From Candidatus Omnitrophota bacterium (GTDB lineage Bacteria > Omnitrophota > Gorgyraeia > Zapsychrales > Fredricksoniimonadaceae): a DNA stretch of 64,000 bases. The position numbers and the translations under genes are program-made. Under the pieces are notes generated by a model. That model did not search any database. It saw only the letters and a list, made by a program, of their open reading frames with translations, and was not told the DNA's origin. Where the stretch lies: positions 66,876 to 130,875 of the forward strand of contig CAIVRE010000018.1 in NCBI GenBank assembly GCA_903908245.1, in the 5' to 3' direction. Positions 42,031 to 60,046 of this stretch are shown in pieces; within the stretch, counting starts at the first letter, position 1, and each line of letters begins with the position of its first letter.

Positions 42031-42077
42031 CCGGATTTCTTCCTTCAGATTGACATTCATTAAGACGGGTGATATTA

Positions 42078-43970
42078 TCAACCCGTCTTTTTTATTGTTC
42101 TGTATGACGAGATATTGATTTTTTTCGGAGTAATGGAAACCTCTATCCACCCGTCAGGCTTTAGCCTGTCGTGGTGGATAGAAGTCTCCAAAACTTCCGG
42201 AGGAAGTTTTGGAGAGGTGGCCGAGTGGTTGAAGGCGCACGCCTGGAAAGTGTGTGACTGCAGAAATGTGGTCCCAGGGTTCGAATCCCTGCTTCTCCGT
42301 ATTTGATACCAATTCGAACCCTGGTGCTCCTGATCGAGGAGCGCCAGGGTTTCGATGTTTGTATGGGCCACGCAATATGGCTTGAAATCCCTTTCCTTGT
42401 CTTCAAACAAGCGATAATAGTCCGAATCCTTAGATAGTACTGGCTCGAGGCTGACCGGCCCTAAAAGCTCTTTTAAAGACAGGGAAGAGGCTAATGTGTC
42501 CTGGGAAAGTGTCTCGCTAAGTTTGGTCAGCCGGTTCTCGATCCATTCTTTGGGTGGGGCTTTAAAGGTGTTGTTGGTTTGGAACTCAAGGGATTGGATA
42601 TCCTGTTTGAGGTTAGTATCTTTTCGTTCTGCTTCTGTCAGGGCGTCTGCTACTGATTTGGACAGATTCCCGACTTTAATGAAGTTGATATAGTTTTGGA
42701 TCTCATCCTGCAATTTTGCGATCTCGGCACGTTTCTTCTTGAGGGTTTCCGGCGTCTTGTTTAATGTCGCAGCCGCTACTTTCTCGACCTTCTCGTAGAT
42801 GTATTCCAGGTTTTCGACGGTAAGGATCTTTTCTTTTAGGTCAGCGAGGATCTGTTCTTCGATCCTCTTTCGGGGGATGATAATGGTGTTCTTGCAGGTT
42901 TTTCTGCCGGCATTGTAACAGCCATAATAGCCCGTTGACTTGCCGCTCACCAGAACAATAGCACCGTCGCAAAGGCTGCATTTCATCAGGCCTGAGAAGA
43001 GGTGGGTGGGGCTGGTGTGGACGTAGCTCTTTTGTTTGTAGAATTTCTGGCGCTTTTTGCTGACAGGCCATGAACCTTCCATATCTTTCCAGCGTTGTTG
43101 CGCTTTATCCCAGGTGTCTTTATCGATAATGATAAGATCTTCACGGAAGAAGACCATCTGGTCTTTTACAGGTCGAGGCGTCGTCTTCTTTTTGCCCGTC
43201 ATAGGATCTCTGGAGGTTTTACTCCGTCGCCAGTCCCATTTCCCGATATAACGTTCGTTCTTCAGGATCCTGGAGAGGGTGGAGACATTCCAGCCATTTT
43301 TCTTACCCTTCTTTGTCGCCAGGCCTTCTTCATTGAAGAGGCAGGCGATCTTGTGAACGCTTTTTCCGGAAATGAATTCAATGAAGATTTTTTTAATGAT
43401 CTCGGCTTCTTCGGGGTTGATGACATGGATCCGGCCTTCATATTTCGCTTGACCGCGCTTATTCATGCGTAGTTCGCCGTAAGGCTTGGTGTAATAGCCA
43501 TAGACGTTCTCTCCGGCGCTAAAACCTCTCAGTTTTTGCCCTTCCAGACCGCGCATTGTCTTTTTTCTAAGGTCATCCAGATATAGCTCGTTTATCAATC
43601 CGCGCAGTTGAATGCCGAGCTTGGAGTTTTCGTCATCCGTGACGATTCCGTCAGATACGGAGATAAGTTTTACCTGCAGGTAGTTGAATTGAAGAACAAG
43701 TGTAAGCATTTGATGGTTGCTTCTGGAGAGGCGGGAGAGGTCGTCAACGACAACGGCTTCAAACTCGTGTTGTTCCATTGCTTTTGTTAATGCTTGCAGG
43801 GCAGGGCGGTTGATCAATGCGCCTGAAATGGCCTGATCTGTAAAAATGTGGTTATCATCGATGGTAATGTCATGCGCGGCACAGTAATTCTTACAGACGC
43901 GGATCTGGTCATCTAGACTTTTCTCGCTTTGGTTCTCTGAGGAATATCTGGCATAAATAGCGGCGCGCAT
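42078..43970 (-). CDS. large serine recombinase (resolvase/invertase-type catalytic domain + recombinase domain + zinc ribbon + coiled coil)
   Basis: N-terminus MRAAIYARYSSENQS...DDQ is the Ser-recombinase catalytic motif. A C4 zinc-ribbon (CSLCDG...CYNAGRKTC) follows. The last ~74 codons (42078-42300) are antisense to tRNA-Ser and its leader, so the real C-terminus may be shorter. Confidence 0.75.
   Translation of the reverse strand: MRAAIYARYSSENQSEKSLDDQIRVCKNYCAAHDITIDDNHIFTDQAISGALINRPALQALTKAMEQHEFEAVVVDDLSRLSRSNHQMLTLVLQFNYLQVKLISVSDGIVTDDENSKLGIQLRGLINELYLDDLRKKTMRGLEGQKLRGFSAGENVYGYYTKPYGELRMNKRGQAKYEGRIHVINPEEAEIIKKIFIEFISGKSVHKIACLFNEEGLATKKGKKNGWNVSTLSRILKNERYIGKWDWRRSKTSRDPMTGKKKTTPRPVKDQMVFFREDLIIIDKDTWDKAQQRWKDMEGSWPVSKKRQKFYKQKSYVHTSPTHLFSGLMKCSLCDGAIVLVSGKSTGYYGCYNAGRKTCKNTIIIPRKRIEEQILADLKEKILTVENLEYIYEKVEKVAAATLNKTPETLKKKRAEIAKLQDEIQNYINFIKVGNLSKSVADALTEAERKDTNLKQDIQSLEFQTNNTFKAPPKEWIENRLTKLSETLSQDTLASSLSLKELLGPVSLEPVLSKDSDYYRLFEDKERDFKPYCVAHTNIETLALLDQEHQGSNWYQIRRSRDSNPGTTFLQSHTFQACAFNHSATSPKLPPEVLETSIHHDRLKPDGWIEVSITPKKINISSYRTIKKTG
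42185..42215. repeat. 31-bp near-perfect palindrome overlapping the tRNA-Ser 5' end
   Basis: TCTCCAAAACTTCCG-G-AGGAAGTTTTGGAGA; the arms differ at one position; the last 5 nt are tRNA nt 1-5. Confidence 0.5.
42211..42299 (+). tRNA. tRNA-Ser (GGA)
   Basis: GGAGAGGTGGCCGAGTGGTTGAAGGCGCACGCCTGGAAAGTGTGT, a long variable arm, GGTTCGAATCC and CTTCTCCG; 89 nt, class II. Confidence 0.85.
42314..42354. repeat. imperfect ~17-bp-stem hairpin immediately 3' of tRNA-Ser, containing an inverted copy of the tRNA T-arm segment
   Basis: TCGAACCCTGGTGCTCC...GGAGCGCCAGGGTTTCGA; TTCGAACCCTGG is the reverse complement of tRNA nt CCAGGGTTCGAA. Confidence 0.4.
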
Positions 43971-43973
43971 GGA

Positions 43974-44162
43974 TTATCCTTTTGAAGAGAACAGTTCGGG
44001 ATGTTCAATTGCTGTTTTACAGTATTCATCGGCTAGGATCATGGAAATGGCATCAAGCATGCGCTGAACAGCGGCTGAATCCTTCCAGGAGAAGGAGGCC
44101 TTTGATGCTTTATAGATTGCTGTGGGTTCAGTTGCTATGATTGCCATGTACTTTTTTAACAA
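43974..44162 (-). CDS. small hypothetical protein (62 aa) translationally coupled upstream of the recombinase
   Basis: Its stop lies 4 nt before the recombinase ATG; possible recombination accessory factor (speculative). Confidence 0.3.
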   Translation of the reverse strand: MLKKYMAIIATEPTAIYKASKASFSWKDSAAVQRMLDAISMILADEYCKTAIEHPELFSSKG

Positions 44163-44275
44163 ATCCCTTTAAGGGTATATAATAGTCAAGTATTATATAA
44201 AAAGGTTGACCGCTCTTCTATGTCTAAAATATACCACTTAATGGATAATTTGTCAAGTGACACGACGGGAGGTAT

Positions 44276-44477
44276 TATGGATCCAAAGGTATTGGGAAAG
44301 AAGATCAAGTTGGCAAGGGTGGAGCTTGATTTAACGCAAACAGATCTGGCCGATAAGATCGGGGCAAAGCAGAAGAGTGTTTCACGCTATGAGAACGGAG
44401 CTTCTACGCCGTCGCTTGAGACAATGGCTAAAATCGCTAAAGTGCTAAAGAGACCTGTGGATCATTTTGTACAATAA
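44276..44477 (+). CDS. XRE-family helix-turn-helix transcriptional regulator
   Basis: LTQTDLADKIGAKQKSVSRYENG is the HTH_3 motif; GGAGG SD before ATG 44276; divergent from the recombinase operon. Confidence 0.7.
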
Positions 44478-44501
44478 TGAATTTAAGCAGTCATTATCTA
44501 A

Positions 44502-44526
44502 AAGCCGCCTTATGGCGGCTTTTTTA
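44502..44526 (+). terminator. intrinsic terminator (AAGCCGCC-TTAT-GGCGGCTT + TTTT)
   Basis: Perfect 8-bp stem plus a T-run after the XRE gene. Confidence 0.6.
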
Positions 44527-44617
44527 CGGATACACGACAGAACGCTGTCGTATTCGTTTTGTATATTAATAATCCGCTGTTTCACCACTTCCTAAGTGGC
44601 AACAATGAACAGGGGGC

Positions 44618-44635
44618 GCGACTTCTTCTTGTCGC
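44618..44635 (+). promoter_or_regulatory. palindromic operator copy 1 (GCGACT-N6-TGTCGC), 15 nt upstream of TATAAT (44651-44656)
   Basis: Same GCGACA-N6-TGTCGC family as the five downstream copies; sits upstream of the nuclease-WYL operon. Confidence 0.5.
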
Positions 44636-44666
44636 GCGTAGATATTTGAGTATAATAAGGATCTAT

Positions 44667-46238
44667 ATGAGTGAATCGTTTGACCAGCAGCAGTCTCATC
44701 ATGATCTTATTTACGACATCCTCGTCGAGAAGAATGCCGTAAAATCTTCCGGGACTCTTACAAAATCAAAATTCTTGAACGGGCTTCAATGTCCAAAACT
44801 TTTGTGGACCTGTTGTAATTCTTCCGAAACAATACCATCTCCTTCTGTCAGGACTCAACAAGTGTTCGATGTCGGGCATCAGGTTGGCGCGCTTGCTGTT
44901 GAGAGATTTCCTGGTGGACGCCATGTTCAAGAGGATGACTTCCTAAAGAATATTGAAGAGACGCAACTGCTTTTGGCTTTGAAAGATCCGCAGCCGATCT
45001 ATGAAGCGGGGATCAAGGCGGGACGGTTGTATTCCCGCGCTGATATCCTGGTTCCGTCGAAGACAGTATCCGGGGCCTGGGACATTGTCGAGGTTAAGTG
45101 CGGGGCCGGTGTTAAAGAAATTTATCTTCAGGACATTGCCTTTCAGCGTTATTGCTACGAACAGGCCGGGGTGAAGATCGGGCGTTGTTTCCTGATGCAT
45201 ATTAATAATGAATATGTTCGATGCGGTTCTATTGATGTTGAAAAGTTTTTTCATCTTGTTGATGTTACCGGTGATATTGTTTCGTTATCCGCGGCTTTGC
45301 CGGAAATTATTGACGGCTTTCTAAAGATCATTGATTTGCCTAAATGTCCTGAAGTTTGTATTGGCCAGTTTTGTGATACGCCGTATTCTTGTCAGATGAA
45401 GTCTTTGTGCTGGGAATTTCTTAAGCCCGGGAATGTGATGGAACTTCGCGGGCGTAAGGAGACGGCATTTAAGTTTTTAGAGCAGGGGATTGAACAGATC
45501 AGGGATATAACAGATCCGGAAAAGTTATCTGACGGGCCCATGATCCAGTATCAGTGTGCTTTGAGTGGAAAGCCTTTTGTCGATCATGAGAAGATCGCGG
45601 GTTTTGTTTCGGGGTTAAAATATCCCTTATATTTTATGGATTTTGAGACATTATTTGAGGCGATCCCGCGTTTTGACGGGACACGGCCTTATCAGCAGGT
45701 GCCATTCCAGTTTTCGGTACATTTACTGACGGGTCCCGGCGTATTTGCCGAGCACTTTGAATTCTTGCATAAAGAGTCGACAGACCCCCGTCCGGCGCTC
45801 TTTAAGGCGTTGCGTGAATGTTTGGATTCTAAAGGTACCATTCTTGCGTATGTCATGAGTTTTGAAAAAGCCAGGATCAGAGAACTTGGGGAAGCTTTTC
45901 CGGAACATGCTGGATGGTGCGCCAATGTTAGTGCCCGGATCGATGACCTTATCATTCCTTTCCGCAGTTTCTTTTATTATCATCCTGCTCAGCAGGGCTC
46001 TTCCTCGTTAAAGAAAGTTTTGCCTGCTCTGGTAGGCAGGGGGTATGAAGGCATGATGATCGCTGATGGGGCTCAGGCAACATCCGAATATGCCCGGGTG
46101 ACCTATGGTAAGGGAGTTGACCCTGTTGATCACGCTAAGGTCTATGAAGACCTTGAGGCCTATTGCGGGCTGGATACCATGGCGATGGTGTACATTTTAG
46201 AGAAGTTGAAACTATTGCAGAAAGGATCATCATTATGA
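44667..46238 (+). CDS. Cas4/RecB-like PD-(D/E)xK nuclease (with Cys cluster) fused to a DEDDy-type 3'-5' exonuclease domain
   Basis: N-terminal half has D...DIVEVKCG (D/EVK), a QxxxY motif (QDIAFQRY) and a C-x3-C-x4-C-x5-C cluster. C-terminal half has FMDFET (exo I DxE), a central acidic motif and YCGLD (YxxxD exo III). ATG at 44667 lies inside track ORF 44559. Confidence 0.55.
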   Translation: MSESFDQQQSHHDLIYDILVEKNAVKSSGTLTKSKFLNGLQCPKLLWTCCNSSETIPSPSVRTQQVFDVGHQVGALAVERFPGGRHVQEDDFLKNIEETQLLLALKDPQPIYEAGIKAGRLYSRADILVPSKTVSGAWDIVEVKCGAGVKEIYLQDIAFQRYCYEQAGVKIGRCFLMHINNEYVRCGSIDVEKFFHLVDVTGDIVSLSAALPEIIDGFLKIIDLPKCPEVCIGQFCDTPYSCQMKSLCWEFLKPGNVMELRGRKETAFKFLEQGIEQIRDITDPEKLSDGPMIQYQCALSGKPFVDHEKIAGFVSGLKYPLYFMDFETLFEAIPRFDGTRPYQQVPFQFSVHLLTGPGVFAEHFEFLHKESTDPRPALFKALRECLDSKGTILAYVMSFEKARIRELGEAFPEHAGWCANVSARIDDLIIPFRSFFYYHPAQQGSSSLKKVLPALVGRGYEGMMIADGAQATSEYARVTYGKGVDPVDHAKVYEDLEAYCGLDTMAMVYILEKLKLLQKGSSL

Positions 46239-47254
46239 CGGCAAAAAAGAAGATCGTTAAGAGCGGGCGGACAGGTAACAAGAAGAAGCTCGTGACTTTT
46301 AAGAGGACGGGAAGGGGAAAGAAGGCTGAAGGTCAGAAAAAGGCTGTGGAGCGCCTTATAACGATGCTTTCGATCTTGGATAAGGGCCGCTCGATCTCAT
46401 CCAAAGAAGTTTCGGATACCCTTCATGTTACTCAACGCACAGTTCAGAGAGATCTTAAGATCCTTCATGATGCGGGTTATCCTATTCAGGATCTTGAGAA
46501 CGGACGATACCAGTTCATGGAAGGCTTTTCCTTGCGCAAGGTTTCTTTGACAGAGGAGCAGGCGTCGCTCTTGTCGTTCATGTTCGATGTTGCATCCGGG
46601 TTAGGGGAGACTTTTGAAGCATCGTTCCGTGATCTTTTTAAACGCTTACTGGCCAAAGACCTTTATACGCCTTTCTATGCAAAGGTTCCGGTTAAACAGG
46701 CTCCGTTACCGGCGACGACACAGGTTAAGTTTCTTGAGGCGTCAATTCTTGAAAGCAACCGCATTAAGATCAAATATGTTTCAGCAACTCAAATTGAGAA
46801 AGAGTATTGTCTTGAGCCGCTGAAGATCGCATTCTTTGATGGGTTCTGGTATCTGATCGCGATCAAGAAAGGTGACAAGCAGATTCAAAAATACAGGGTG
46901 GACAGGGTGCTGGATGTAGAGATCCTGGAGGAGTCGTTTGCGCCTTCTGTAAATATTGACAAGATCCTCGGTGACAGCGTTAATATCTGGTTTGACGAGG
47001 TGCGAGGTGAGCGGGTTCTGATCAGGGTGGCGCCGGATGCGGTTCAGTATTTTAAGGAGCAAAAATATCTTCCGCTTCAAAAGACGGTTGAGGAGCGTAA
47101 GGATGGATCAATTGTGATCGAGACCTTTCCGGCTAACCTGGATGAGATCAAGCACATTGTCATGCATTGGGTGCCTTGTTTAACTGTGCTTGAGCCGGCG
47201 GGTTTCAAGGCCGAGATCAAGGCGATGGTGGAGGGGTATTTGAAGGATTGTTAA
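46235..47254 (+). CDS. HTH-WYL domain transcriptional regulator (BrxR/CapW-like) with Lys-rich N-terminal extension
   Basis: wHTH (ITMLSILDKGRSISSKEVSDTLHVTQRTVQRDLKIL) followed by a WYL domain (FFDGFWYLIAIKKGD...YRVDRV); the start overlaps the nuclease stop (ATGA). Confidence 0.65.
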   Translation: MTAKKKIVKSGRTGNKKKLVTFKRTGRGKKAEGQKKAVERLITMLSILDKGRSISSKEVSDTLHVTQRTVQRDLKILHDAGYPIQDLENGRYQFMEGFSLRKVSLTEEQASLLSFMFDVASGLGETFEASFRDLFKRLLAKDLYTPFYAKVPVKQAPLPATTQVKFLEASILESNRIKIKYVSATQIEKEYCLEPLKIAFFDGFWYLIAIKKGDKQIQKYRVDRVLDVEILEESFAPSVNIDKILGDSVNIWFDEVRGERVLIRVAPDAVQYFKEQKYLPLQKTVEERKDGSIVIETFPANLDEIKHIVMHWVPCLTVLEPAGFKAEIKAMVEGYLKDC

Positions 47255-47296
47255 GGGTTTAATAATTTCATAGGTAGTGATGAAAGGGCAAATCTT

Positions 47297-48268
47297 ATGG
47301 CAGGTAAAAAAGCTGTAAAAATTGAGGTTAAGAAGAAAGATGGCCCCTTTAAGAATTTTGATGAGAAGGGTAAGCTGGCCGAAGAGGGGACTTTAAAGAA
47401 TGGTGAGTTGGAGGGACTTTATAAGGAGTACGATGTAAACGGGAAGTTGGTTGAAGAAGCCGTTTATAAAAGTGGACTTAAGGATGGTCTTTTAAAGGCA
47501 TATTATGAAAATGGGAAAGTTGAGCATGAAATAGATCACAAACGTGGTATTCCGAATGGAATGTGTAAGTTTTATGATCCGAAAGGAATATTGCGCGAAG
47601 AGGGTTTTTATAAGAATGGGTTGAAGGAGGGCGTGTATAAATTCTACGATGAAAAGGGATTGCTGAGTAGAGAGGCAATCTTTAAGAATGGCAGTGAATT
47701 GCCGTCTAAGAATTTGTTAAAACAAACGTCCAAGAAGGTTTCTTCTAAGGTGCTTACGAAGACTCAAATTAGACAGTATTTGTTAGATGATTTAGTTCTT
47801 CGTATGTGTGCGGGGCCTGAAAGATTGCAACAGGTTAAGTTTATGCCAGCAGTGTTCAATTTTCTTCGGGATTTGAAGCTTAAGCACCCATTCTTCCCGC
47901 AATCTATTGATTCTAAGGAGTTGGAGAAATTTTATATTGATCCAGGAAGCGACGCGCAGAAGACTATTGCAAGTGTTGGCAAGAAGATCGAAGGTGGCTT
48001 GAAAAAGTTTAATAAAGATCAGTATGGAGCATTTTGTGAAATCGTTTGTAAAGATCAGTCTATCATTTTAGCGTTCTTATTAATTTCTGGAGCGTATGCA
48101 AGTATGGAATATTCCGTTGCCTTACTGGCTAGTCAGTGTCTTATTCCCGGATTTTCGGATATTAATGAGAAAACGTACGAGCATGATAAGGTGAGGCTTA
48201 TGATAGATACAGAGGACATCTTGGAGAAGTTTAGTCTGCCGCTATTTCCTTCCAGGAAGGAATCGTAG
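47297..48268 (+). CDS. MORN-repeat protein (YwqK-like N-terminal repeats) with unknown C-terminal domain
   Basis: Repeated G-x-L-E/K-G-x-Y-K-x-Y-x-x-N-G-K units. Confidence 0.5.
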   Translation: MAGKKAVKIEVKKKDGPFKNFDEKGKLAEEGTLKNGELEGLYKEYDVNGKLVEEAVYKSGLKDGLLKAYYENGKVEHEIDHKRGIPNGMCKFYDPKGILREEGFYKNGLKEGVYKFYDEKGLLSREAIFKNGSELPSKNLLKQTSKKVSSKVLTKTQIRQYLLDDLVLRMCAGPERLQQVKFMPAVFNFLRDLKLKHPFFPQSIDSKELEKFYIDPGSDAQKTIASVGKKIEGGLKKFNKDQYGAFCEIVCKDQSIILAFLLISGAYASMEYSVALLASQCLIPGFSDINEKTYEHDKVRLMIDTEDILEKFSLPLFPSRKES

Positions 48269-48405
48269 ATTGTGATTGATCTGTTTAACTCATTTTCGTT
48301 TCGATGGCATGTCGGTAAAGTGACTGTTAATAAGGGCCGGGGGTTCAAAGCCGAGACTATGGCAGACACATATTTGAAGGATGGTTAAAGAGTGGTGGGA
48401 ATCTT

Positions 48406-49031
48406 ATGAACCTGACTGATTTGAGAATTGTTGTTAAAGACTTGCTAATGAAGCGGGTTTATTGTTGTGAGGCGGATTTGCAGTTTTCTTTGGCCTGGAA
48501 ATTAAAAGAAAAAGATAACGATGTTCGTTTGGAGATTCCTTTTCATGGGATTGAAGATGAGGAAGGAAGAAGGAGTACCTGGATGTTCTCTTTTTATCAT
48601 CGACGAAAGAAAAGATCGGAGTGGAGCTAAAATATAAGACATCAAATTTTCCTTATGTTGATGCTTTTGCAGGGGCGCTTACCTTGAAAGATCATGGTGC
48701 ACAGGATCTTGGTTTATATGATTTCTTATGGGATGTGTACCGTTTGGAGCAATTTTGTAAGGATTCAAAGGTAGATCGGGGGTTTGCTGTCTTTGTTACG
48801 AATGATTACAGCTATAAAAATGACGTAAAGCGTCAGAAATCGAACGCCAACCAGTTTCGGTTGCCTGAAAATAGATTGATCACAGGGAGTTTGGCCTGGG
48901 GTAATCCTGATGCCGGGTCTTTAGGAAGCCGATTGTCAGAATTTAAATTGTACGGGCAGTATTCTGTAAATTGGGTTGATATTGAAGGTACTCATTTTTC
49001 ATTCCTGATTTTTGAGGTTTTAAGGCCTTAG
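48406..49031 (+). pseudogene. hypothetical gene apparently split by a +1/-1 frameshift at an A/G-rich tract (two overlapping ORFs, 48406-48630 and 48621-49031)
   Basis: The ORFs overlap by 10 nt in different frames at CGACGAAAGAAAAGATCGGAG. This could be a genuine frameshift, a programmed slip or a sequencing error. Confidence 0.3.
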
Positions 49032-49062
49032 AAACGGGTAATTGGTTGTCCTTTTTTGAAGG

Positions 49063-49080
49063 CGACAGGATGCTGTCGCC
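49063..49080 (+). promoter_or_regulatory. palindromic operator copy 2 (GCGACA-GGATGC-TGTCGC), 10 nt upstream of TATAAT
   Basis: Read directly; precedes phosphatase A. Confidence 0.5.
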
Positions 49081-49120
49081 TTCATGCTTTATAATCCATG
49101 CAGCTAAAAAGGAGGCTGAT

Positions 49121-50092
49121 ATGGCAGTAAGAAAAGATGATTCGGATGAGGGACGCATGTTTGAGGTTGCTGATTATGGGCGTGAACTTCCAAGGGAGAT
49201 TGATCCCGGCAAGCCGTATTGGGTGTTAGGTGGTAAGGCGGCGTTGTTTGGCATGCCGCATCCGAATCGACTCGCCAGGGATGGTCAGAAGGATCTGTTC
49301 AAAAGACTTCAGAATGCCAAAGTGCAGGTAATTATCAATCTGTCTGGGAGAAGGTATGCGAATCCTGATCCGAATTGGTTTGATTACCAAGAGTTTTTTA
49401 TCACTGACGGTGGTCCGATGGATGGAGAACAGAATATTCTTTGGGCGGCCGTTGCGTATGTTGTGAAGTCATTAAAAGCCGGGAAAAGTGTTGTGATCCA
49501 TTGTGAAGGCGGAACAGGACGCACGGGTGTGACAATAGGGTGCGTGTTGTGCAAGCTTGGAAAAGGAACCGGTCAGGACATCGCGATTTGGTTAAGTGAG
49601 CTTAATAATAGACGCCCCGGGAAACGCTGGCCTGAGGCCTCTATTCAAGGGAAGATCGTTCGGGAATGCTGTCCGGATAAGAAAGGCAATGATCGTCAGG
49701 TGATTGATCCGGCAACGCGCAATATTAAGGAAGTGTCGCTTTTTTCTGATGAAGAAAGAAGCTTTATGTGTACGGTTGTAGCCGTCAATGGAGATCGGAT
49801 TACAGTGCGCCGGCATGATACGGGAGAGGTTATTGAGGTTTCCAGCAGGTTCCTGCAGAAGCAGGAGCGGCCTCGGGAAGAACAAAGGAATGTGCAGGAT
49901 ATATTTGCATCGGCCACTCCGGAAGATCTTCAGGAAAGAGCTCGTCAGTATCCCTATATCCTTTTGGATGAGGTTCAACGGACGCTGGCGCTTTTTGCTA
50001 AGAAGTTGTCTTCAGCGAAGGCTGAGAAACTAAAGAATGATCTTTTAGATATTAATGCACGGATAGAGGTCCTTAAGAAAAAGATCAATTAA
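49121..50092 (+). CDS. Cys-based protein phosphatase-fold protein A (CX5R P-loop HCEGGTGRTG) with ~150 aa C-terminal extension
   Basis: VVIHCEGGTGRTGVTIGC is the PTP/DUSP-type active site. Paralog of 51664-52248 over the N-terminal ~190 aa. ATG inside track ORF 49046; coordinate ±1. Confidence 0.55.
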   Translation: MAVRKDDSDEGRMFEVADYGRELPREIDPGKPYWVLGGKAALFGMPHPNRLARDGQKDLFKRLQNAKVQVIINLSGRRYANPDPNWFDYQEFFITDGGPMDGEQNILWAAVAYVVKSLKAGKSVVIHCEGGTGRTGVTIGCVLCKLGKGTGQDIAIWLSELNNRRPGKRWPEASIQGKIVRECCPDKKGNDRQVIDPATRNIKEVSLFSDEERSFMCTVVAVNGDRITVRRHDTGEVIEVSSRFLQKQERPREEQRNVQDIFASATPEDLQERARQYPYILLDEVQRTLALFAKKLSSAKAEKLKNDLLDINARIEVLKKKIN

Positions 50093-50116
50093 GGATTTTC
50101 TAATTTATCTCTAATA

Positions 50117-50150
50117 AGCCGGACGGCATCAAAATGCTATCCGGCTTTTT
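50117..50150 (+). terminator. intrinsic terminator (AGCCGGA-N18-TCCGGCT + TTTTT)
   Basis: Stem plus T-run after phosphatase A; a similar hairpin sequence recurs at about 52296-52318. Confidence 0.55.
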
Positions 50151-50160
50151 CATTTTATTG

Positions 50161-50178
50161 GCGACACGATGTTGTCGC
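50161..50178 (+). promoter_or_regulatory. palindromic operator copy 3 (GCGACA-CGATGT-TGTCGC), followed by TGT-TATTAT extended -10
   Basis: Read directly. Confidence 0.5.
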
Positions 50179-50229
50179 TGGCAATTGTTATTATTGCATC
50201 AGGTGAACAAATGATAACAGGAAAGGAAA

Positions 50230-50442
50230 ATGCTTATGCAGATCGCCAGCGCAGTTCAACGGGGTTCGTCAGTCTATGTTTATGATCAGAACGGCAGTCA
50301 GTTGTGCAGTTTAAGTGCCGGTAGCGGTCCCAATGATGGACTGAAAGGGTATACGGGTTGTTCCGTTAGCATTCGACGGGGTAGCACCATATATACCTAT
50401 AACGAAAAAGGAAGTCAGATCTCGGTAACATCCGCAGTTTGA
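50230..50442 (+). CDS. small protein (70 aa) with internal tandem repeat
   Basis: GSSVYVYDQNGSQLCSLSAG and GSTIYTYNEKGSQISVTSA are two ~20 aa repeats. Confidence 0.35.
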   Translation: MLMQIASAVQRGSSVYVYDQNGSQLCSLSAGSGPNDGLKGYTGCSVSIRRGSTIYTYNEKGSQISVTSAV

Positions 50443-50451
50443 GGAGAGAGT

Positions 50452-51051
50452 TTGATGCGAAGTTTTGTGATCGGCGATATTCATGGTCAGGATGAAGCTC
50501 TTGTGTCGGTTCTATCGAAATGCGGGTTTGTGTATGAAGAGGACCGTCTGATCGTCTTAGGCGACATATACGATGGATTGAAACCTGAGGCGTGCATTGA
50601 GCATCTTAAAACGATCAGGCATTTGGTGTCGATCATGGGTAATCATGATCATGCGGTCATGGATATGCAAATACGTGAGGGGCAATACGCTCCTGAGACG
50701 ATGTTCCTAAAGTCCATGCGTTCATTCTTTACGGAAGACGGGAGGTTTTTTGCTCATGGGGGCTTTGATCCATACAAGCCTCTGACGGAGCAGGACGAGT
50801 ACGATCTTGAGGGAAGTCGAAAACTTCCGTCTGAGGCCTGGAAAGCGCATATGAGGGGTGATGATTTTATGATCGATGGGTTCCGTGAGGTTTATGTGGG
50901 TCATACGCCAACCCAGATCTATGGGTTTACAACGCCGCTAAATCTTGGGAATCTTTGGATGATGGATACCGGAGCAGCGCCGAGGCTCGGTGGGTATTTA
51001 AGCGTCATGGATATTGATACCAAGGAGTTTTGGCAGGTGAAATGCTGCTAA
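50452..51051 (+). CDS. PPP-family metallophosphoesterase (Ser/Thr phosphatase / ApaH-PrpE-like)
   Basis: GDIHG, GDIYDG, GNHD and VGHTP are the calcineurin-like phosphoesterase motifs. Confidence 0.75.
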   Translation: MMRSFVIGDIHGQDEALVSVLSKCGFVYEEDRLIVLGDIYDGLKPEACIEHLKTIRHLVSIMGNHDHAVMDMQIREGQYAPETMFLKSMRSFFTEDGRFFAHGGFDPYKPLTEQDEYDLEGSRKLPSEAWKAHMRGDDFMIDGFREVYVGHTPTQIYGFTTPLNLGNLWMMDTGAAPRLGGYLSVMDIDTKEFWQVKCC

Positions 51052-51084
51052 TTCATTTCGAGTCAAGTAAGAGATTTTGAAGGG

Positions 51085-51639
51085 GTGCCTATGAAGTGGA
51101 GTGAGTTTGTTCAACGAAAAGAAGCGTATAAAAAGACCTGGGCGTTGCTTAAGGCTGAATATGCGCCCGAGAATCCGGTAAGAAAGTTCCTGGATAAGGC
51201 TTACATGAACATCTTCTTCAATGGAAAGCAAATTGATTTTAATTTAGATCCGTACACTATTGCACGTGACACTCCGGATTTCTTCGTTAAGAATAAATAT
51301 TTTAATGAATATCTTGAGTTGATTAAGACATGTAAGGCATTGGAAGATTTGTCTTATAAAGAGAAAAAGACGAAGGTTACTAACGAATTCGATCACAATG
51401 GAACTATAAGGAAGAAAGTCAGTCGATTAGATATGAAAAAGAAAGAACTTCAGCAGTTTGATGTCAATCAACTTGAAGTGGTGCCTAATCGCGCGGAAAT
51501 GATCGTCTCGACGATAGATATGGATATTATTCAGAATATCAAGGGGTCAAAGTTCTGCGATCAAGAGGCAACCTTAATGAGTCGTGCCTCAATACGGGTG
51601 ATCCTTGTTGGCGGTGATAAATTGGGATATCCATGGTAA
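51085..51639 (+). CDS. hypothetical protein X1 (paralog of 52414-52905)
   Basis: MKWSEF... and the C-terminal IDMDIIQNIKGSKFCDQEATLMSRASIRVIL align with the paralog's MTWDEF... and VDMDLIQQIKNSPYCDQEKTMMRPASINVVL. Confidence 0.4.
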   Translation: MPMKWSEFVQRKEAYKKTWALLKAEYAPENPVRKFLDKAYMNIFFNGKQIDFNLDPYTIARDTPDFFVKNKYFNEYLELIKTCKALEDLSYKEKKTKVTNEFDHNGTIRKKVSRLDMKKKELQQFDVNQLEVVPNRAEMIVSTIDMDIIQNIKGSKFCDQEATLMSRASIRVILVGGDKLGYPW

Positions 51640-51663
51640 AAGAACGATCAAGGGAGAGCAAAT

Positions 51664-52248
51664 ATGCCTGTTATGACTGAAGAACTGGATGAGCCGCGCA
51701 TCTATGAGATCGCTGATTATGGAAAACCTCTGCCGCGGGTTATGAATCCTTTGAGGGCGTATCGTGTCCTTGACGGCAACGCGTCGTTATTCGGGATGCC
51801 GCATCCGTCCATTCTTAAGGAAATAGACCGCAAGCAGTTGTTTGCTCAATTGTATGAGGACGGAGTTCGTTATCTTATTAATCTGACTAAAGAAAATTCA
51901 GGTGCTTCATATTCCGACAGGATTTTATTATCATCGTTTTGTCCTGTTACGGATCAGGGACCAAAAGGGGCTATTGAAAAGACTATGCTTTTATCGGGCG
52001 TAGATAGCGCGGTAGCGGCTTTAAAGAATGGCGAGGGGGTTGTGATCCATTGTTGGGGAGGAACCGGGCGTACGGGGACGGCCATCGGGTGTATTTTACG
52101 CAAGCTGGGTAAAGGCTCCGGTGTAGAGATTGTGAATTGGCTTGGTGAGTTGAATCAAAGGCGTGAAAGGCATTGGCCGGAGTCACCGGTACAGGCTGAA
52201 GTGGTTAGGGAGTGTCAGCCGGGGGAAGATTTCTTTGATAGGCTGTAA
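51664..52248 (+). CDS. Cys-based protein phosphatase-fold protein B (HCWGGTGRTG)
   Basis: VVIHCWGGTGRTGTAIGC; the N-terminus IADYGKPLPRVMNP...LFGMPHPS is paralogous to protein A. Confidence 0.55.
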   Translation: MPVMTEELDEPRIYEIADYGKPLPRVMNPLRAYRVLDGNASLFGMPHPSILKEIDRKQLFAQLYEDGVRYLINLTKENSGASYSDRILLSSFCPVTDQGPKGAIEKTMLLSGVDSAVAALKNGEGVVIHCWGGTGRTGTAIGCILRKLGKGSGVEIVNWLGELNQRRERHWPESPVQAEVVRECQPGEDFFDRL

Positions 52249-52330
52249 TCTTTAAGGCAGAGAATTTTGAACGCTGTTGTTATTAAGGCCGGGCGACATG
52301 AAAGTGTTATCCGGTTTTTCTTTTTACTAA

Positions 52331-52348
52331 ACGACAGGATGCTGTCGC
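52331..52348 (+). promoter_or_regulatory. palindromic operator copy 4 (ACGACA-GGATGC-TGTCGC)
   Basis: Read directly; preceded by a hairpin resembling the 50117 terminator. Confidence 0.45.
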
Positions 52349-52413
52349 GTGAGTGTTTTAAGGTTATGTACGGTGTTGATCCGGGCAGGCAGGTGAATCG
52401 GGCGGGGGGTGTT

Positions 52414-52905
52414 ATGACATGGGATGAGTTTCTGGCAGAAAAGAAGTTGTATGTTCAATCCTGGAAGAAAATGAAAGAGGGCGCTACAGAAGATATGCAG
52501 AAGTTTCTGAGCAAGTCCTGGATCGTGGTGTATTGCAAACAGCAGTTTGATATTGATGCGGATTTTATGACTGTTTTTAATGAATGTCCTTCATTCTTTC
52601 AAAATGTGCCAAGGTTCACCAGGATCAAAGCGCTCTGTGAAGAGATGAAGACGCTTGAGAAACGCATTAAGCGGGAGAAAGAAAACCATAGTGACCTGCT
52701 GGAAGATAAGAAAGATCTTCAAGAAGAAATAGCGGAGTTGTGTCCGGGGGAGCTTCCAGTTGATGATTCCTGGAGGATTGAGGTCAGGTTTCCTACTGTA
52801 GATATGGATCTGATCCAACAGATCAAGAATTCTCCGTATTGTGATCAGGAAAAGACAATGATGCGCCCTGCCTCTATTAATGTGGTGTTGAAGAACGTAC
52901 TGTAA
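52414..52905 (+). CDS. hypothetical protein X2 (paralog of 51085-51639)
   Basis: See X1. The start was chosen by paralog alignment; alternatives are ATG 52366 and the track start 52267. Confidence 0.4.
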   Translation: MTWDEFLAEKKLYVQSWKKMKEGATEDMQKFLSKSWIVVYCKQQFDIDADFMTVFNECPSFFQNVPRFTRIKALCEEMKTLEKRIKREKENHSDLLEDKKDLQEEIAELCPGELPVDDSWRIEVRFPTVDMDLIQQIKNSPYCDQEKTMMRPASINVVLKNVL

Positions 52906-52912
52906 AGACCGT

Positions 52913-53314
52913 ATGGAAGAAATCAATGGAAAATTAAAGGTCAGACTTTCGCCCGCAGTTATTAGAGGGTGGACCATCGAGTTGGATAGGATTTTTCGTT
53001 CCTGTGACAGGAATGATACAAAGATCAGAATCTTCAAGTTTTGTTATCAGCCTGTAAGTGGCGAGTTGATTTTTGACGGGTCATATTTTCATGCTGACAT
53101 GCTTAGAAAGCATGGATGCCAAAAGTTCGATGAGTATGTTCGTGGGATCTGTTTCTGGAAGAAACGGGTTATTTATCTCAGGGGGCATGCGAATGAGGAT
53201 TGGCTTAATAAGACAAAGGCAATGCTTCGTCAAAATGGTGTTGGGCGGCATATCCGGATTATTTGGGGAGAAAAGGCAGCACATGAGCTTCGTCACGATT
53301 TGATTGGCCTGTAA
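52913..53314 (+). CDS. hypothetical protein (133 aa)
   Basis: ORF in operon context; no recognisable domain. Confidence 0.35.
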   Translation: MEEINGKLKVRLSPAVIRGWTIELDRIFRSCDRNDTKIRIFKFCYQPVSGELIFDGSYFHADMLRKHGCQKFDEYVRGICFWKKRVIYLRGHANEDWLNKTKAMLRQNGVGRHIRIIWGEKAAHELRHDLIGL

Positions 53315-53319
53315 ATTTG

Positions 53320-53337
53320 GCGACAGGATGTTGTCGC
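53320..53337 (+). promoter_or_regulatory. palindromic operator copy 5 (GCGACA-GGATGT-TGTCGC), followed by TGT-TATACT extended -10
   Basis: Read directly. Confidence 0.5.
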
Positions 53338-53383
53338 GGCCAATTGTTATACTTGATCCCGGAAGACAAAAACGGGAGAGGTT

Positions 53384-54841
53384 ATGATGGATAATACTAT
53401 TGGTTGGCTGATTGCAGGTCTTTTAGTGGTCGTATTTTTGATGGCTTTGTTTTCAAAGAAGCCCGTTAAGTCAAAAGTTTTCAAAGTCAGAACGCGAGTT
53501 GTGCCGCCGGTTGATTGTGCGAAAGAAGATTTCTTTGCCCGTTTTGATGATGCGATTGAGCAGAATCTTACCAATGCGGCGTCTATGAGCTACGATCCGC
53601 CACTTCAAGAAGAAGGCCCGGAAGATGATCCGGTTTTTGAACTTCCATCCACAAGACCTCAATTTCGCATCCCGGAAGCCTCGCTGAAGATGGGCATTTC
53701 TCCAGTAAAGCCGCGCATGGCTTCAGCGAAGACCAAATTATTAGCTGCTCCAAAACGACTCGCCCTGTTCCTTGTGGCAAGCTCATTTCTGTTTGCTATT
53801 AGCGGTGAGGCGTTTGCTTTATCGGTAGACAGGCCTTTTACTGGAACCGACGAGCATACGGTTTATCAGCCATTTGATGAGGCGAATAGCGATCCGGTTT
53901 ATAAAAGCAGTGTACTACCTGGGACAACAGTAAAGTCGACGGCTCTCCAATCTTCAGATCATTTGAATGTTAGTAAGCCGGTTGCAAAAGACAGTTTTAA
54001 AGCCATTGCCGTTGAAAATTCGTCTTCGGCAAAGGATTCGAATGCCTGGGTATTCTGGGTTCTTGGCATCCTGTTGATGATCTCCGGTTTTGGTATTGCT
54101 CAAGCGTATTCATTGGAAATGGTTTTCTTTAATGATAGCGCTGACATGTGGCTTTCGATTGCTATGGCAGTAGTTGTGGCATGCCTCTGTTTTGTGCAAG
54201 ACAAAACCTGGCTCTGGAGTGGCTTTGGATTTGTTGTTATTTATCATTTTGTGGCGGCATATAAATTCAATCCGGGTATGGGTGCAATGGCATTTATTAT
54301 CGGGATATCAAGGGTGATCATCGGCGTTGTTATACCTGCAATAGCTTTATTTACATTAGTCTCCGGCCCGTCAAGGGAAAAGGACGAGAGTGCCGCCAGT
54401 TATGAAGCCAGATGCGCCATGCATATGGTCTTTAAAGCAGCATTCTTAACGGGGTTGTTCTTCTTTATGAAGTCGTTGGTGAATGGTCAGAAAGTGCGTG
54501 AGGCAAGAGGGGAGTTTGAGCATTTTGAGGAGTCATTTGAACAGAAGTCTGAGGAATCAGCCAAGGCTGAGCCACGGAGCGAAAAGGGCTCTGATGGTCA
54601 GAAGAACGGTTTTAAAGCAGCCTCAGAGCACGCTCCGTCAGATCATGAGATCTTTGGGGTTTCCCGGAATGCAACTTTTGAGGCCATACAGCGGGCATAC
54701 CGTAAAAAGATGATGAAGATCCATCCTGATCGGATGGCGGGCCTGGGGGCGAAGTATCGGCAGAAGGCCGAGGAAGAATGCAAAAAAATTAATGCGGCCT
54801 TTGATCGATTGCGGAAAGAGAGGAACCATGTCTTTGTTTGA
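53384..54841 (+). CDS. DjlA-like membrane protein with C-terminal J domain
   Basis: N-terminal TM segment plus a central cluster of TM helices. C-terminal J domain (DHEIFGVSRNATFEAIQRAYRKKMMKIHPDR...) carries the HPD motif. Confidence 0.6.
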   Translation: MMDNTIGWLIAGLLVVVFLMALFSKKPVKSKVFKVRTRVVPPVDCAKEDFFARFDDAIEQNLTNAASMSYDPPLQEEGPEDDPVFELPSTRPQFRIPEASLKMGISPVKPRMASAKTKLLAAPKRLALFLVASSFLFAISGEAFALSVDRPFTGTDEHTVYQPFDEANSDPVYKSSVLPGTTVKSTALQSSDHLNVSKPVAKDSFKAIAVENSSSAKDSNAWVFWVLGILLMISGFGIAQAYSLEMVFFNDSADMWLSIAMAVVVACLCFVQDKTWLWSGFGFVVIYHFVAAYKFNPGMGAMAFIIGISRVIIGVVIPAIALFTLVSGPSREKDESAASYEARCAMHMVFKAAFLTGLFFFMKSLVNGQKVREARGEFEHFEESFEQKSEESAKAEPRSEKGSDGQKNGFKAASEHAPSDHEIFGVSRNATFEAIQRAYRKKMMKIHPDRMAGLGAKYRQKAEEECKKINAAFDRLRKERNHVFV

Positions 54842-55157
54842 TGCCCGTATAGCGCATATTAACCGTTATTTTGCTGTCTATTTAACTGTTATTTCGGTGG
54901 TCCTTGTTTTGGTCATTTCCGGATCTCCCGTTGCTATTTCATTGTCACATTTCGATAGAGATATGCCTGTTGGTTTCGGCAAGGGGATGGCGCACGGGTT
55001 TTTGCTGTCTGTGAACCTTATCCGTTCGATCTTTGATGTTCGGACAGGTATTTACCAGATACCCAACACTGGAATGGGATACAACGCAGGGTTCTTTCTG
55101 GGCATTATTTTATGGTTCGCTATCGGGCGTATGGGGGAAGAAACGAAGGCGACATGA
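54828..55157 (+). CDS. small hypothetical membrane protein (109 aa)
   Basis: ATG 54828 inside track ORF 54792; two predicted TM helices; overlaps the J-protein 3' end. Confidence 0.35.
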   Translation: MSLFDARIAHINRYFAVYLTVISVVLVLVISGSPVAISLSHFDRDMPVGFGKGMAHGFLLSVNLIRSIFDVRTGIYQIPNTGMGYNAGFFLGIILWFAIGRMGEETKAT

Positions 55158-55166
55158 GGCTGTCGC
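55149..55166 (+). promoter_or_regulatory. palindromic operator copy 6 (GCGACA-TGAGGC-TGTCGC)
   Basis: Read directly; precedes the long downstream operon. Confidence 0.5.
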
Positions 55167-55212
55167 TGGTTAATGCTAAGCTCTTATACATAATTAATAC
55201 TCAGGTGATTGC

Positions 55213-55617
55213 ATGCAAGAGAGAATCTTGAAGAAGCGAAAAACGTATAAGCCTATCGACGCGGAAACGCTGGGGCGTAGCCTTTTTAAGATCCACACGT
55301 GTAAGAAACGAGGAAAGTATTCGCCGGCCGTTAAAGTCATTGCCGGTGATATATGGGAGATGCTTGGTGGGATGCGGGCAATGGCGCAGGAGTTTGTTAA
55401 GAATCCGACGCTTGAGGTAATGGAAGAACTCAGATTTTGGTTATTGGATAGTGATCATCATTGGAATTCATTAAAGAATATTTGCAGCAGGAGCAGAGGG
55501 CGGCGGAGTTTGGATCGCTTGGCTAAAGAATATCCGCAGTGGTTGTTGCTGCTACCTTTGGAAGATGTAGCAGAACGGTTATGGTGGCTTGAAGAAGAAG
55601 GAGATGAGGGAATATGA
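55213..55617 (+). CDS. hypothetical protein (134 aa), translationally coupled to the AAA+ ATPase
   Basis: Stop/start overlap (ATGA) with the next gene. Confidence 0.35.
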   Translation: MQERILKKRKTYKPIDAETLGRSLFKIHTCKKRGKYSPAVKVIAGDIWEMLGGMRAMAQEFVKNPTLEVMEELRFWLLDSDHHWNSLKNICSRSRGRRSLDRLAKEYPQWLLLLPLEDVAERLWWLEEEGDEGI

Positions 55618-56984
55618 AAAATGATCAGGAATACTTCGATAACTACTTTTGCATCAGTGAACTGCTGATCGAGAAAGATCTGCTTGTCGATAAGTTGTGG
55701 GAGGGCAAAAACGATACCGGATATTTGGCCAGCGCACACTATCAGGCAAGGAAGGCCATTAACACGCTTAATTCTTTGATACGCGATGAAGAAAAGCGCT
55801 TGAGTCATATTATTCGTAAGGCTGAGTCGCAAGGAACGATTTTTTCTTTTGAATCGTTCACAAGAAAGATGGAGTTGAGTGATTTTGAGAAACGACTGAT
55901 GCTTTTCTTTCTGCATCTTGATCTGTTTTGCAGTGGCAGCGTCGGTTTTCCAAGAAGAAAGCTGGCGTTGATCCTTGATTGCGAAGAAACAGCGGTATCC
56001 CGTGCGAGAACGTTGCTGGATCTGTTTCCAGGTAGTGCTTTATACAAGAAGAATATTCTGTCTGCGATCGACATCGGCGGAAGTGAGGTTCGTTTGGCTG
56101 AGAGCATGCGGGATGCTTTGAGAAAACTTGTGTCAGGTCAGGAGGCGGATCTTGTTATGACTGAGACTACCCGGGAGGAGATTGAGGCTGCCGGGGTTGT
56201 TTATGAGCCCGAATACAGCATGGAAGACGTGTCGCTTCCCGGGCAGATCAAAGAACAGGTTTTAATGCATTTGAACACGCATGGACGGCTGGCATCGTTA
56301 GGAGTCATGGATAAAGTGCGGCGCGGTCGTGGGCTTTGCATGTTGTTTTATGGTCCTCCAGGGACAGGGAAAAGCATGCTTTCTCATGCCATAGCACGTC
56401 ATTTAGGAAAAAAGGTTCTTCAGGCATCTCCGGCGCAGATCAAAGACCGCTGGGTAGGCCAGACAGACAAGAATATTGCCGCTTTATTCAAGGTGGCTAA
56501 AGAAAAGAATTATGTCTTGTGTCTGGATGAGGTCGATACGCTTTTATTTGAACGAAGCGAGGCGTCACGTTCATGGGAGATCTCGCAGACGAATACGTTT
56601 CTTGAAGAAGTAGAAAGATTTGACGGGATTTTAGTAATGACAACAAATCTGGAAGGGCGGCTTGATCCAGCGATTGAGCGCCGGGTGGCGTTGCGTGTCC
56701 GTTTTGATGCGCCTGACCATTGCGTACGGGAGACTATCTGGCAGAAACAGATCCCGTCGACTGTTAAGTGTGGGGAAGATATTAATTGGGCTCGTCTGGG
56801 AATGCAGTATTCATTTACCGGCGGTTATATCAAGAATGCCGTCATGTCCGCGTTGCGTCATATGCTTTCACGGGAAAGTCAGGTGCTTGAGATGGAGGAT
56901 CTTGTTTATGGAGCCGAGAGTGAAATGAAGGGGCTTTTACGAAGTTCCGCTAAAGCTCCAATGGGTTTTGCAACTAGAGGATAA
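55614..56984 (+). CDS. classic-clade AAA+ ATPase with ~230 aa N-terminal domain of unknown function
   Basis: Walker A LFYGPPGTGKSM, Walker B VLCLDEVD and second region of homology/Arg finger (TTNLEGRLDPAIERRV). Confidence 0.75.
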   Translation: MKNDQEYFDNYFCISELLIEKDLLVDKLWEGKNDTGYLASAHYQARKAINTLNSLIRDEEKRLSHIIRKAESQGTIFSFESFTRKMELSDFEKRLMLFFLHLDLFCSGSVGFPRRKLALILDCEETAVSRARTLLDLFPGSALYKKNILSAIDIGGSEVRLAESMRDALRKLVSGQEADLVMTETTREEIEAAGVVYEPEYSMEDVSLPGQIKEQVLMHLNTHGRLASLGVMDKVRRGRGLCMLFYGPPGTGKSMLSHAIARHLGKKVLQASPAQIKDRWVGQTDKNIAALFKVAKEKNYVLCLDEVDTLLFERSEASRSWEISQTNTFLEEVERFDGILVMTTNLEGRLDPAIERRVALRVRFDAPDHCVRETIWQKQIPSTVKCGEDINWARLGMQYSFTGGYIKNAVMSALRHMLSRESQVLEMEDLVYGAESEMKGLLRSSAKAPMGFATRG

Positions 56985-56990
56985 AAATCT

Positions 56991-57179: not shown

Positions 57180-57192
57180 TAGACAGGAACTT

Positions 57193-60037: not shown

Positions 60038-60046
60038 CGGAAAGAG

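Follow-up and report, generated by a model that had tools for sequence, protein, structure and literature searches.

The window analyzed here, the whole stretch of DNA under study, comprises 64,000 nt of Candidatus Omnitrophota bacterium GCA_903908245.1 (contig CAIVRE010000018.1, positions 66,876-130,875 of the forward strand), and its central feature is the junction between a tRNA-Ser(GGA) gene and a serine recombinase gene that reads antisense into it at the edge of a putative mobile island. RNA genes were called with ARAGORN and Rfam, and protein domains with Pfam. The recombinase is encoded by the minus-strand open reading frame (ORF) 42078..43970, whose 630 amino acids contain the domains Resolvase (PF00239, E = 6.8e-29, residues 3-149), Recombinase (PF07508, E = 5.5e-23) and Zn_ribbon_recom (PF13408, E = 2.6e-9). 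In addition, the motif IYARYSSENQ of the catalytic domain is invariant in alignment A1 of the integrase protein family. By its domain content the enzyme is a large serine recombinase (LSR) and can be taken as the integrase of the island, the role that the original prediction, made from the DNA letters of the window, had given it.

The tRNA-Ser(GGA) gene (42211..42299, plus strand) is intact and was called at 42210-42300 by ARAGORN and at 42211-42299 by Rfam (RF00005, 54.9 bits). It ends in ...CTTCTCC-G followed by TAT and does not encode CCA; elsewhere in the window, CCA is encoded in the gene for tRNA-Ile and not in that for tRNA-Ala. An identical 89-nt gene, unoccupied, is found in L102, a metagenome locus retrieved by scanning JGI metagenomes with the 3′ half of the window tRNA-Ser. 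L102 has the same TTGACA-17-TATTAT promoter, different neighboring genes and no integrase. A second informative relative is L001, a contig carrying a variant of the island with the same gene order as the window, 99.3% identical to it over 49051-54117 and 94.9% identical over 42297-47253.

These two relatives place the junction to within a few bases. The similarity of L001 to the window ends exactly at 42297: past ...AATACGG, L001 runs on as CGTGGCCATGTACCACATACGAA, while the window enters the antisense strand of the tRNA. From the other side, the L102 trailer (CCG|TTTAATTTTTCAATGAACCC) matches that of the window (CCG|TATTTGATACCAATTCGAACCC) up to T42300, and farther out it keeps CAAT in the same register as P′, the half-site contributed by the element. 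An island boundary at the 3′ end of tRNA-Ser, as proposed from the window alone, is thus supported by both comparisons, L001 ceasing to match at 42297 and L102 after 42300. Because the occupied, the non-tRNA and the unoccupied junction (the attachment sites attL of the window, attP-like of L001 and attB-like of L102) have only CCGT (42297-42300) in common, the 2-bp crossover would lie inside this tetranucleotide, which consists of the last two acceptor bases, the discriminator G and the first trailer base. The divergence points of L001 and L102 and the symmetry of the flanking TTCGAA cores would place the exact dinucleotide within CCGT, and L001 is read as a candidate attP. A repeated tRNA 3′ end had been anticipated earlier at the far end of the island; as serine integrases exchange just 2 bp, such a direct repeat was not to be expected.

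The two TTCGAA cores, one in the T-arm (42280-42285) and the other in the element (42313-42318), are, as read from the sequence, mirror-symmetric about G42299. A 13-nt motif, ATTCGAACCCTGG, occurs in both half-sites at 13 bp (B) and 14 bp (P′) from the G42299 center, and GGTTCGAA is present both in P′ and in the tRNA T-arm. The B half-site would correspond to the 3′ part of the tRNA gene (~42274-42298, T-arm and acceptor 3′ strand). The element-supplied P′ half-site (42299..42324, plus strand) contains CCAATTCGAACC at 42309-42320, which on the integrase strand reads GGTTCGAATTGG and encodes G-S-N-W. Over 57 family members, the G-S-N codons are GGT in 54/55, TCG in 48/49 and AAT in 56/57 cases, and the columns of the P′ motif are invariant in alignment A2. 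Nearby degenerate codons show 0.8-2.6 bits of synonymous entropy. At 10-22 bp from the crossover, the frozen sites fall exactly in the place expected of a P′ half-site. As the synonymous codons of G-S-N are frozen while their neighbors vary, P′ is under constraint at the level of DNA. The reverse complement of the T-arm noticed earlier beside the tRNA does exist; rather than a stray tRNA fragment, it appears to be this conserved half-site mirroring the T-arm about G42299. Among the unoccupied tRNA-Ser trailers of the family loci, no common B′ motif was found. The attL site is therefore proposed to be 42274-42324, made up of the B half-site, the crossover and the P′ half-site, a likely assignment within the overall explanation developed below.

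The same arrangement recurs across a large family of integrases. Protein searches returned at least 120 homologues that are 60-99% identical, and where a source is named it is mostly Omnitrophota. In GTDB species genomes, 80 loci were recovered, for the most part from Omnitrophota and Chlamydiota; others lie on contigs labeled Planctomycetia, Verrucomicrobia, Elusimicrobia or otherwise, labels that may in some cases stem from binning errors in metagenome-assembled genomes. Sixty loci were scanned with ARAGORN, and the integrase adjoins tRNA-Ser (TGA, CGA, GGA, GCT) in ~44, tmRNA in 6 (7 with L043, recognized by Rfam) and tRNA-Asp in 3. In ~53 of the 60, the RNA gene begins precisely at the 3′ end of the integrase gene and is read from the other strand. 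These junctions keep a single register, in which ...GGTTCGAATTGGT is followed by eight variable bases, (TGG)CGG and the acceptor strand. The W-R codons TGG-CGG of most members correspond to discriminator-CCA read in antisense; ATA-CGG takes their place in the window, L034 and L001, as suits a tRNA whose CCA is not encoded. Loci that depart from the pattern are contig ends (L023, L059), tRNA fragments (L037, L076), a tandem remnant (L016) and non-tRNA junctions (L036, L074).

Several of these exceptional junctions are informative in their own right. In L016 (6526-6700), the integrase end is followed by ~25 nt, the decayed 3′ end of a second integrase with its own P′ motif and then tRNA-Ser(GGA), and in L037 (7840-7900) and L076 (11654-11760) the integrase adjoins just a 3′ fragment of tRNA-Ser. 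Such degenerate and tandem junctions suggest serial integrations and decay. On the 184-kb contig of L036 (11689-12100), the integrase end passes without a tRNA into TGGCGG|TGGTTC...GTGTTCGAATGG, followed by a G+C-rich stretch of ~300 nt in which Rfam finds no known RNA, and this locus remains a non-tRNA or attP-like exception.

The integrase is remote from characterized enzymes: among 50,697 phage and 72,556 plasmid records, no LSR reaches 32% identity to it. Of the curated models, CcrB scores highest, at 124 bits against a cut-off of 900, and matches in the PDB are confined to the N-terminal half. In IMG/VR, the best match is 33% identical, with no close relative of the integrase and no exact match to the L001 P arm, and the element therefore does not correspond to a recognized virus. 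Literature searches returned no description of this integrase clade, which does not prove that none exists. Chances appear about even that this is a large, well-conserved serine-integrase clade of Omnitrophota, Chlamydiota and neighboring phyla dedicated to tRNA-Ser, tRNA-Asp and tmRNA, whose attP, lying at the end of the integrase gene, would combine three overlapping codes: C-terminal codons, a T-arm-mimicking half-site and a replacement tRNA terminator, with discriminator and CCA in most members.

Conservation of the protein stops at the junction. The conserved LSR body (42294..43970, minus strand; residues 1-559), delimited by Pfam, the 120 homologues listed and alignment A1, ends in ...GSNWYQIRR. 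Beyond it lies an unconserved tail of 71 codons and a stop (42078..42293, minus strand), antisense to the tRNA and its leader. The tails that follow the conserved ...NW(Y)(Q)(W)RR in the family range from 1 to 138 codons (median 15), with 17 members stopping within 3 codons, and they are unrelated beyond RR save where the antisense T-arm is translated (RDSNPG). P0001, the integrase relative encoded on L001, has 577 amino acids and aligns with 89% of the query at 99% identity; the two C-termini part after ...NWYQIRR, and that of P0001, at the non-tRNA junction of L001, ends 18 different residues past RR. The antisense reading through tRNA-Ser(GGA) to 42078 described earlier is real, covering ~73 codons over the tRNA and leader rather than ~74. 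As a functional extension of the protein the tail was rejected, neither its length nor its sequence being conserved, and the overlap loses its interest as a feature in itself. The window tail is 71 codons long because its frame has no stop, and the overlap is best regarded as incidental, a by-product of tail swapping at integration. Structure prediction with AlphaFold2 on a 13-sequence alignment gave a low-confidence model with long helices across residues 367-459; with a mean predicted local distance difference test (pLDDT) score of 47.8 and values <50 at the C-terminus, it says nothing on the folding of ...TLALLD..GSNW.

Immediately inside the element, TTCGAACCCTGG, the reverse complement of the T-arm, occupies 42313-42324 and forms part of a stem-loop spanning 42312-42356. 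A hairpin had been described here at 42314-42354; its existence holds, with coordinates that were one base off. The stem-loop and its T-rich tail GTTTGTATG (42312..42366, plus strand) lie antisense within the last integrase codons HTNIETLALLDQEHQGSN, and a terminator scan flagged 42316-42352 plus tail as terminator-like on the plus strand. For the window copy, folding energies of -33.9 kcal/mol (tRNA strand) and -30.5 kcal/mol (integrase strand; z = -6.3) are predicted. Across 53 family sequences, pairing of the stem reaches 87.6% on the tRNA strand vs 74.6% on the integrase strand, with 27-55% in slid controls (22-48% for the integrase strand). The difference between strands arises because G.U pairs on the tRNA strand become A.C mismatches on the other, and the stronger pairing therefore argues for an RNA structure on the tRNA strand. 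Covariation on that strand is 0.216 vs 0.145 in shuffles, with 0/500 shuffles reaching the observed value and 8 pairs changing on both sides.

The sequence that follows the stem is equally regular. The family stems (n = 53; median -24.2 kcal/mol) start ~13 nt past the tRNA and are followed by TTTTGTATG, with 5-6 T within the next 8 nt in 48 of the 53; the 8 nt after the stem hold 5.4 T on the tRNA strand vs 3.0 on the integrase strand. The T-tract is the antisense of T-K-I codons, in which Lys is encoded by AAA in 41 members and AAG in 4, though at the other Lys positions tabulated AAG is the commoner codon or equally common. Taken together, the sequence comparisons indicate that the hairpin is most likely an intrinsic terminator that the element supplies for the tRNA transcript. 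Some unoccupied tRNA-Ser genes of family loci, for example in L028 and L032, also have hairpins directly 3′ of the gene.

On the host side, the tRNA leader contains a perfect palindrome (42185..42215), identified by inverted-repeat search and folding, with a 14-bp stem that covers nucleotides 1-5 of the tRNA. Its presence and coordinates agree with the original prediction, which had given it as a near-perfect 15-1-15 repeat; it consists of two perfect 14-nt arms (42185-42198 and 42202-42215) around the 3-nt loop GGA. It folds at -20.8 kcal/mol (z = -5.0, 0/200 shuffles folding equally well), and by simple arithmetic ~0.001 perfect 14-bp stems with a short loop are expected per 64 kb. A second stable hairpin (42136..42183), found by the same searches, lies just upstream and does not recur in the window, the family leaders or the fetched loci. 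Together, the two form a ~100-nt insertion relative to the L102 leader, such that the promoter-to-tRNA distance is ~132 nt in the window vs ~29 nt in L102. The promoter-like TTGACA-17-TATTAT with TG (42050..42078, plus strand), recognized by promoter scan and by the same hexamers before the L102 tRNA, is probably the tRNA promoter. The folding energy of the leader is -50.8 kcal/mol (z = -7.5), and in the fold of leader plus tRNA the palindrome sequesters acceptor bases 1-5, so that an influence on tRNA 5′ processing is possible according to this model. No T-run follows the palindrome or the hairpin on either strand, and a role of the palindrome as terminator was rejected for this reason. No second copy was found in the window or in any fetched locus, which disposes of a repeat family; the palindrome was seen only in contigs of the window's own species.

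In combination, these observations make it likely that 42.3-64 kb of the window is the left part of an integrated mobile island, placed by the LSR at the extreme 3′ end of tRNA-Ser(GGA), with the P′ half-site and, most likely, a replacement tRNA terminator contained in the end of the integrase gene. The comparisons show where the junction lies, that integrases throughout the family adjoin tRNA and tmRNA genes, that P′ is constrained at the level of DNA and that a strand-specific structure with a T-tract is conserved. An LSR crossover in the last acceptor bases or discriminator would keep all nucleotides of the mature tRNA, and because of this position a recombinase that exchanges 2 bp could use a tRNA gene without a replacement copy. 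Integration would strip the gene of its native 3′ flank, for which the element would substitute the stem-loop and T-tract 13 nt past the tRNA, coded antisense in the integrase codons HT(K/N)I.TLALLD...GSN. This terminator would end the tRNA transcript and probably shield the integrase gene from antisense read-through. Integration would also swap the last residues of the integrase, of which the attP-like variant has 18 codons past RR vs 71 in the integrated copy. The far junction would then read [island]...GCTTTCGTATGTGGTACATGGCCACG-CCG-[host trailer].

A number of observations weigh against this explanation. The far end of the island, attR, was not reached in the contigs retrieved by walking from the window's last complete ORF, and the L001 P arm does not occur in the window at ≤3 mismatches, which places attR outside the window. 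The distances of the P′ and B motifs from the center are nearly equal (14 and 13 bp), and the candidate P arms of L001 and L036 have theirs at ~19 bp, a misfit with canonical LSR geometry; in work on Listeria integrases, both attP half-sites reportedly carry the outer motif ~5 bp further out. L001 is a distinct variant (94.9% identity over the integrase end) whose contig stops 98 nt past the junction, and it may represent a further site of integration instead of attP. The genes flanking L102 differ from those of the window, making it a homologous site in a relative and not the same locus. No isogenic empty site was found in searches via the flanking 556-aa gene, all contigs of the species that reach the junction being occupied. 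With regard to the terminator, the T-tract of the window itself is interrupted (TTTCGATGTTTGT), and the conservation of the stem must come in part from the protein and att constraints.

Alternatives to individual parts of this explanation can be weighed against the same data. The hairpin might be an inverted repeat acting at the DNA level, as an accessory integrase-binding site or part of a longer attP, or a structure at the 3′ end of the integrase mRNA that stabilizes the end or attenuates read-through into the tRNA. One of its arms is indeed the invariant P′ motif and the other repeats TTCGAACC, its two TTCGAA cores are 37 bp apart, near the 38-39 bp spacing of the candidate attP, and the integrase-strand RNA folds well too. 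A DNA-level repeat, however, predicts no strand bias, and pairing is 13 points higher on the tRNA strand, which alone has the conserved T-tract after the stem; the distal arm, moreover, lies 47-57 bp from the crossover, farther than LSR sites usually extend. Both alternatives are consequently unlikely, and the att inverted repeat assumed earlier gives way to a terminator, which the strand-specific pairing and T-tract fit. The case for the palindrome is weaker still. Though a perfect 14-bp inverted repeat beside an integration hotspot is statistically improbable, it is 82-112 bp away from the crossover in host DNA, within the ~100-nt leader insertion that it shares with an unrelated hairpin. 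Furthermore, it is absent from L102, despite the identical tRNA and same promoter, and from ~50 related junctions and family tRNA leaders compared, and it is a single copy across the window and fetched loci. It was accordingly rejected as an att site, the association once suggested for it, and a role as recombination site of this or another element is highly improbable. The palindrome lies outside the att site, with no detectable link to the integration system.

It might also be that the element is a fixed remnant that is no longer mobile, its 71-codon tail marking a decaying integrase and its adjacency to the tRNA being historical. Each contig of the species that reaches the junction is the occupied form, and a circular junction identical to that of the window's element was not found, as this alternative would have it. 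Against it, the integrase ORF is intact with all three domains, and a variable tail of 1-138 codons is normal for a family held at 60-75% identity. Additionally, the same sample series contains a variant, 95-99% identical, in which cargo has been exchanged and the junction differs, and contigs break at the junction (24 nt past it in L008 and 98 nt in L001), as would be expected where alternative junctions coexist. A fixed remnant is thus improbable.

Inside the junction, the island body (42299..64000) is distinguished by composition, domain calls and continuation contigs. The G+C content drops from ~0.52 to ~0.45 at 42 kb, and the variable cargo includes DUF2779, a WYL regulator, PTP-like phosphatases, DnaJ, an IetA-like AAA ATPase, an EPSP-synthase-like protein, PAD and HAD. 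The island runs off the window and extends to at least ~73 kb in window coordinates, in agreement with the earlier placement of its other end outside the window; its length is thereby raised from at least 21.7 kb to at least 31 kb. Between 47254 and 49050, the window carries a MORN-repeat protein and a 136-aa ORF where L001 (5068-6085) has a 266-aa ORF, with flanks that are 95-99% identical, and this difference between the two sequences indicates a cassette-like exchange of cargo.

Cargo is not common to the family, in which the conserved module consists of an XRE regulator, a 62-aa ORF and the integrase. The 62-aa ORF (43974..44162, minus strand) is co-oriented with and immediately upstream of the integrase gene and was found by tblastn at 65 or more family loci, with no match in Pfam, NCBIfam or PHROG. 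Excision by serine integrases needs a separate recombination directionality factor, and the 62-aa protein is the sole candidate for this role, or a candidate for some other accessory one. The XRE-type helix-turn-helix (HTH) regulator (44220..44477, plus strand; Pfam HTH_3, E = 2e-16; 52 family loci) is divergent from the operon of small ORF and integrase, and back-to-back promoter-like sites are found at 44156-44183 (plus strand) and 44256-44228 (minus strand). In addition, the motif CGACAG-N4-CTGTCG occurs seven times, at 44535, 49063, 50162, 52332, 53321, 55150 and 62881, mostly just upstream of cargo genes. Its 13 strand-hits, vs 0.89 expected, all fall in the island and none in the 42 kb of host DNA, and the set looks like operators of an island regulator, WYL or XRE.

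The upstream host DNA contains an rRNA operon, a c-di-GMP riboswitch and the 556-aa gene. Two c-di-GMP-I riboswitch aptamers were detected in the window, at 6411-6578 (62.6 bits) and 40015-40105 (63.2 bits), the latter directly 5′ of the tRNA-flanking 556-aa ORF (40360-42030), which has no Pfam match. In Omnitrophota, a two-part hairpin of the form GAyyTCTCrCCC...GGGTTCGArrTCC lies 15-25 nt upstream of the integrase-adjacent tRNA-Ser in L025, L026, L031, L038, L040 and L041 and resembles an acceptor/T-arm minihelix. In L102 (1274-1293), ~52 nt 3′ of the unoccupied tRNA-Ser(GGA), there is an inverted near-exact copy of the last ~19 nt of the tRNA (GCAGAAGAGGATTCGAAC), which may be the relic of an earlier event or a long-range terminator stem.

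The genes for tRNA and tmRNA are the classic landing sites of tyrosine integrases. A serine-integrase clade acting at the last bases of the tRNA would represent a second and mechanistically different solution, which depends on the choice of crossover position and not on a spare copy, with a further addition in the replacement terminator concealed in the integrase's own codons. If true, this would be the first systematic tRNA-targeting family of serine integrases, in which an enzyme with a 2-bp crossover could use tRNA genes harmlessly and the C-terminal tail of the integrase would be switched between the free and integrated states. Island finders that rely on tRNA-fragment repeats or tyrosine integrases would miss such elements in poorly known phyla. 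As serine integrases are favored for the insertion of large DNA, a near-universal T-arm half-site could give unusually broad host reach. The overlapping constraints on synonymous sites would, moreover, offer a clean natural case of multi-layer coding.

Serine-family integrases have been described as not known to target tRNA genes (PMC4383910), and the only counter-example found in the literature, for tRNA or tmRNA genes, is the predicted DsiB of Dehalococcoides. LSRs are also found in a minority of tycheposons. Like the LSRs of phiC31, Bxb1, Listeria A118/LI, TP901-1, SPbeta (SprA) and SCCmec (CcrB), the present enzyme has the same three domains, is encoded beside att and is accompanied by a small gene as possible directionality factor, and its att site would likewise be short and quasi-palindromic. 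Unlike LSRs of the phiC31/Bxb1 type, it targets tRNA and tmRNA genes at their 3′ ends and not a protein gene or intergenic site, and P′ lies inside the integrase ORF. The Myxococcus phage Mx8 intP is said to be an integrase gene that contains its own attP. Similarly, the archaeal integrases of the SSV type have the recombination site within the integrase frame, and integration changes the product (PMC7253208). The tyrosine integrase of SSV-type elements is, however, split in two by integration, whereas the present enzyme stays whole, with only the residues after ...RR exchanged.

The island also resembles the tRNA islands of tyrosine integrases, in which the integrase adjoins an intact tRNA or tmRNA gene, the 3′ part of that gene is targeted and accessory cargo is carried (Williams 2002; Islander, PMC4383910). 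Tyrosine-type islands restore the gene with a duplicated tRNA fragment, leaving a direct repeat at the far end, while the present gene would be spared by a crossover at its last bases, with no long repeat expected; the only recombinase at the junction belongs to the serine family, and no tyrosine integrase is found there. The closest likeness is to DsiB, a predicted LSR of ~540 amino acids on the reverse strand beside attL at the tmRNA 3′ end (PMC3146451), and to the Dehalococcoides ssrA islands in general, whose variable cargo follows a conserved integration module; tmRNA is likewise the site of some members of the present family. DsiB is CcrB-like and is found at ssrA with a partner, the small serine recombinase DsiA, a 20-bp repeat and an insertion point in the T-loop (PMC3146451). 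By this description the present module is set apart from it, as it has no second recombinase (its neighbors being the 62-aa ORF and the XRE HTH regulator), its junction lies 12-15 nt 3′ of the T-loop and its main target is tRNA-Ser.

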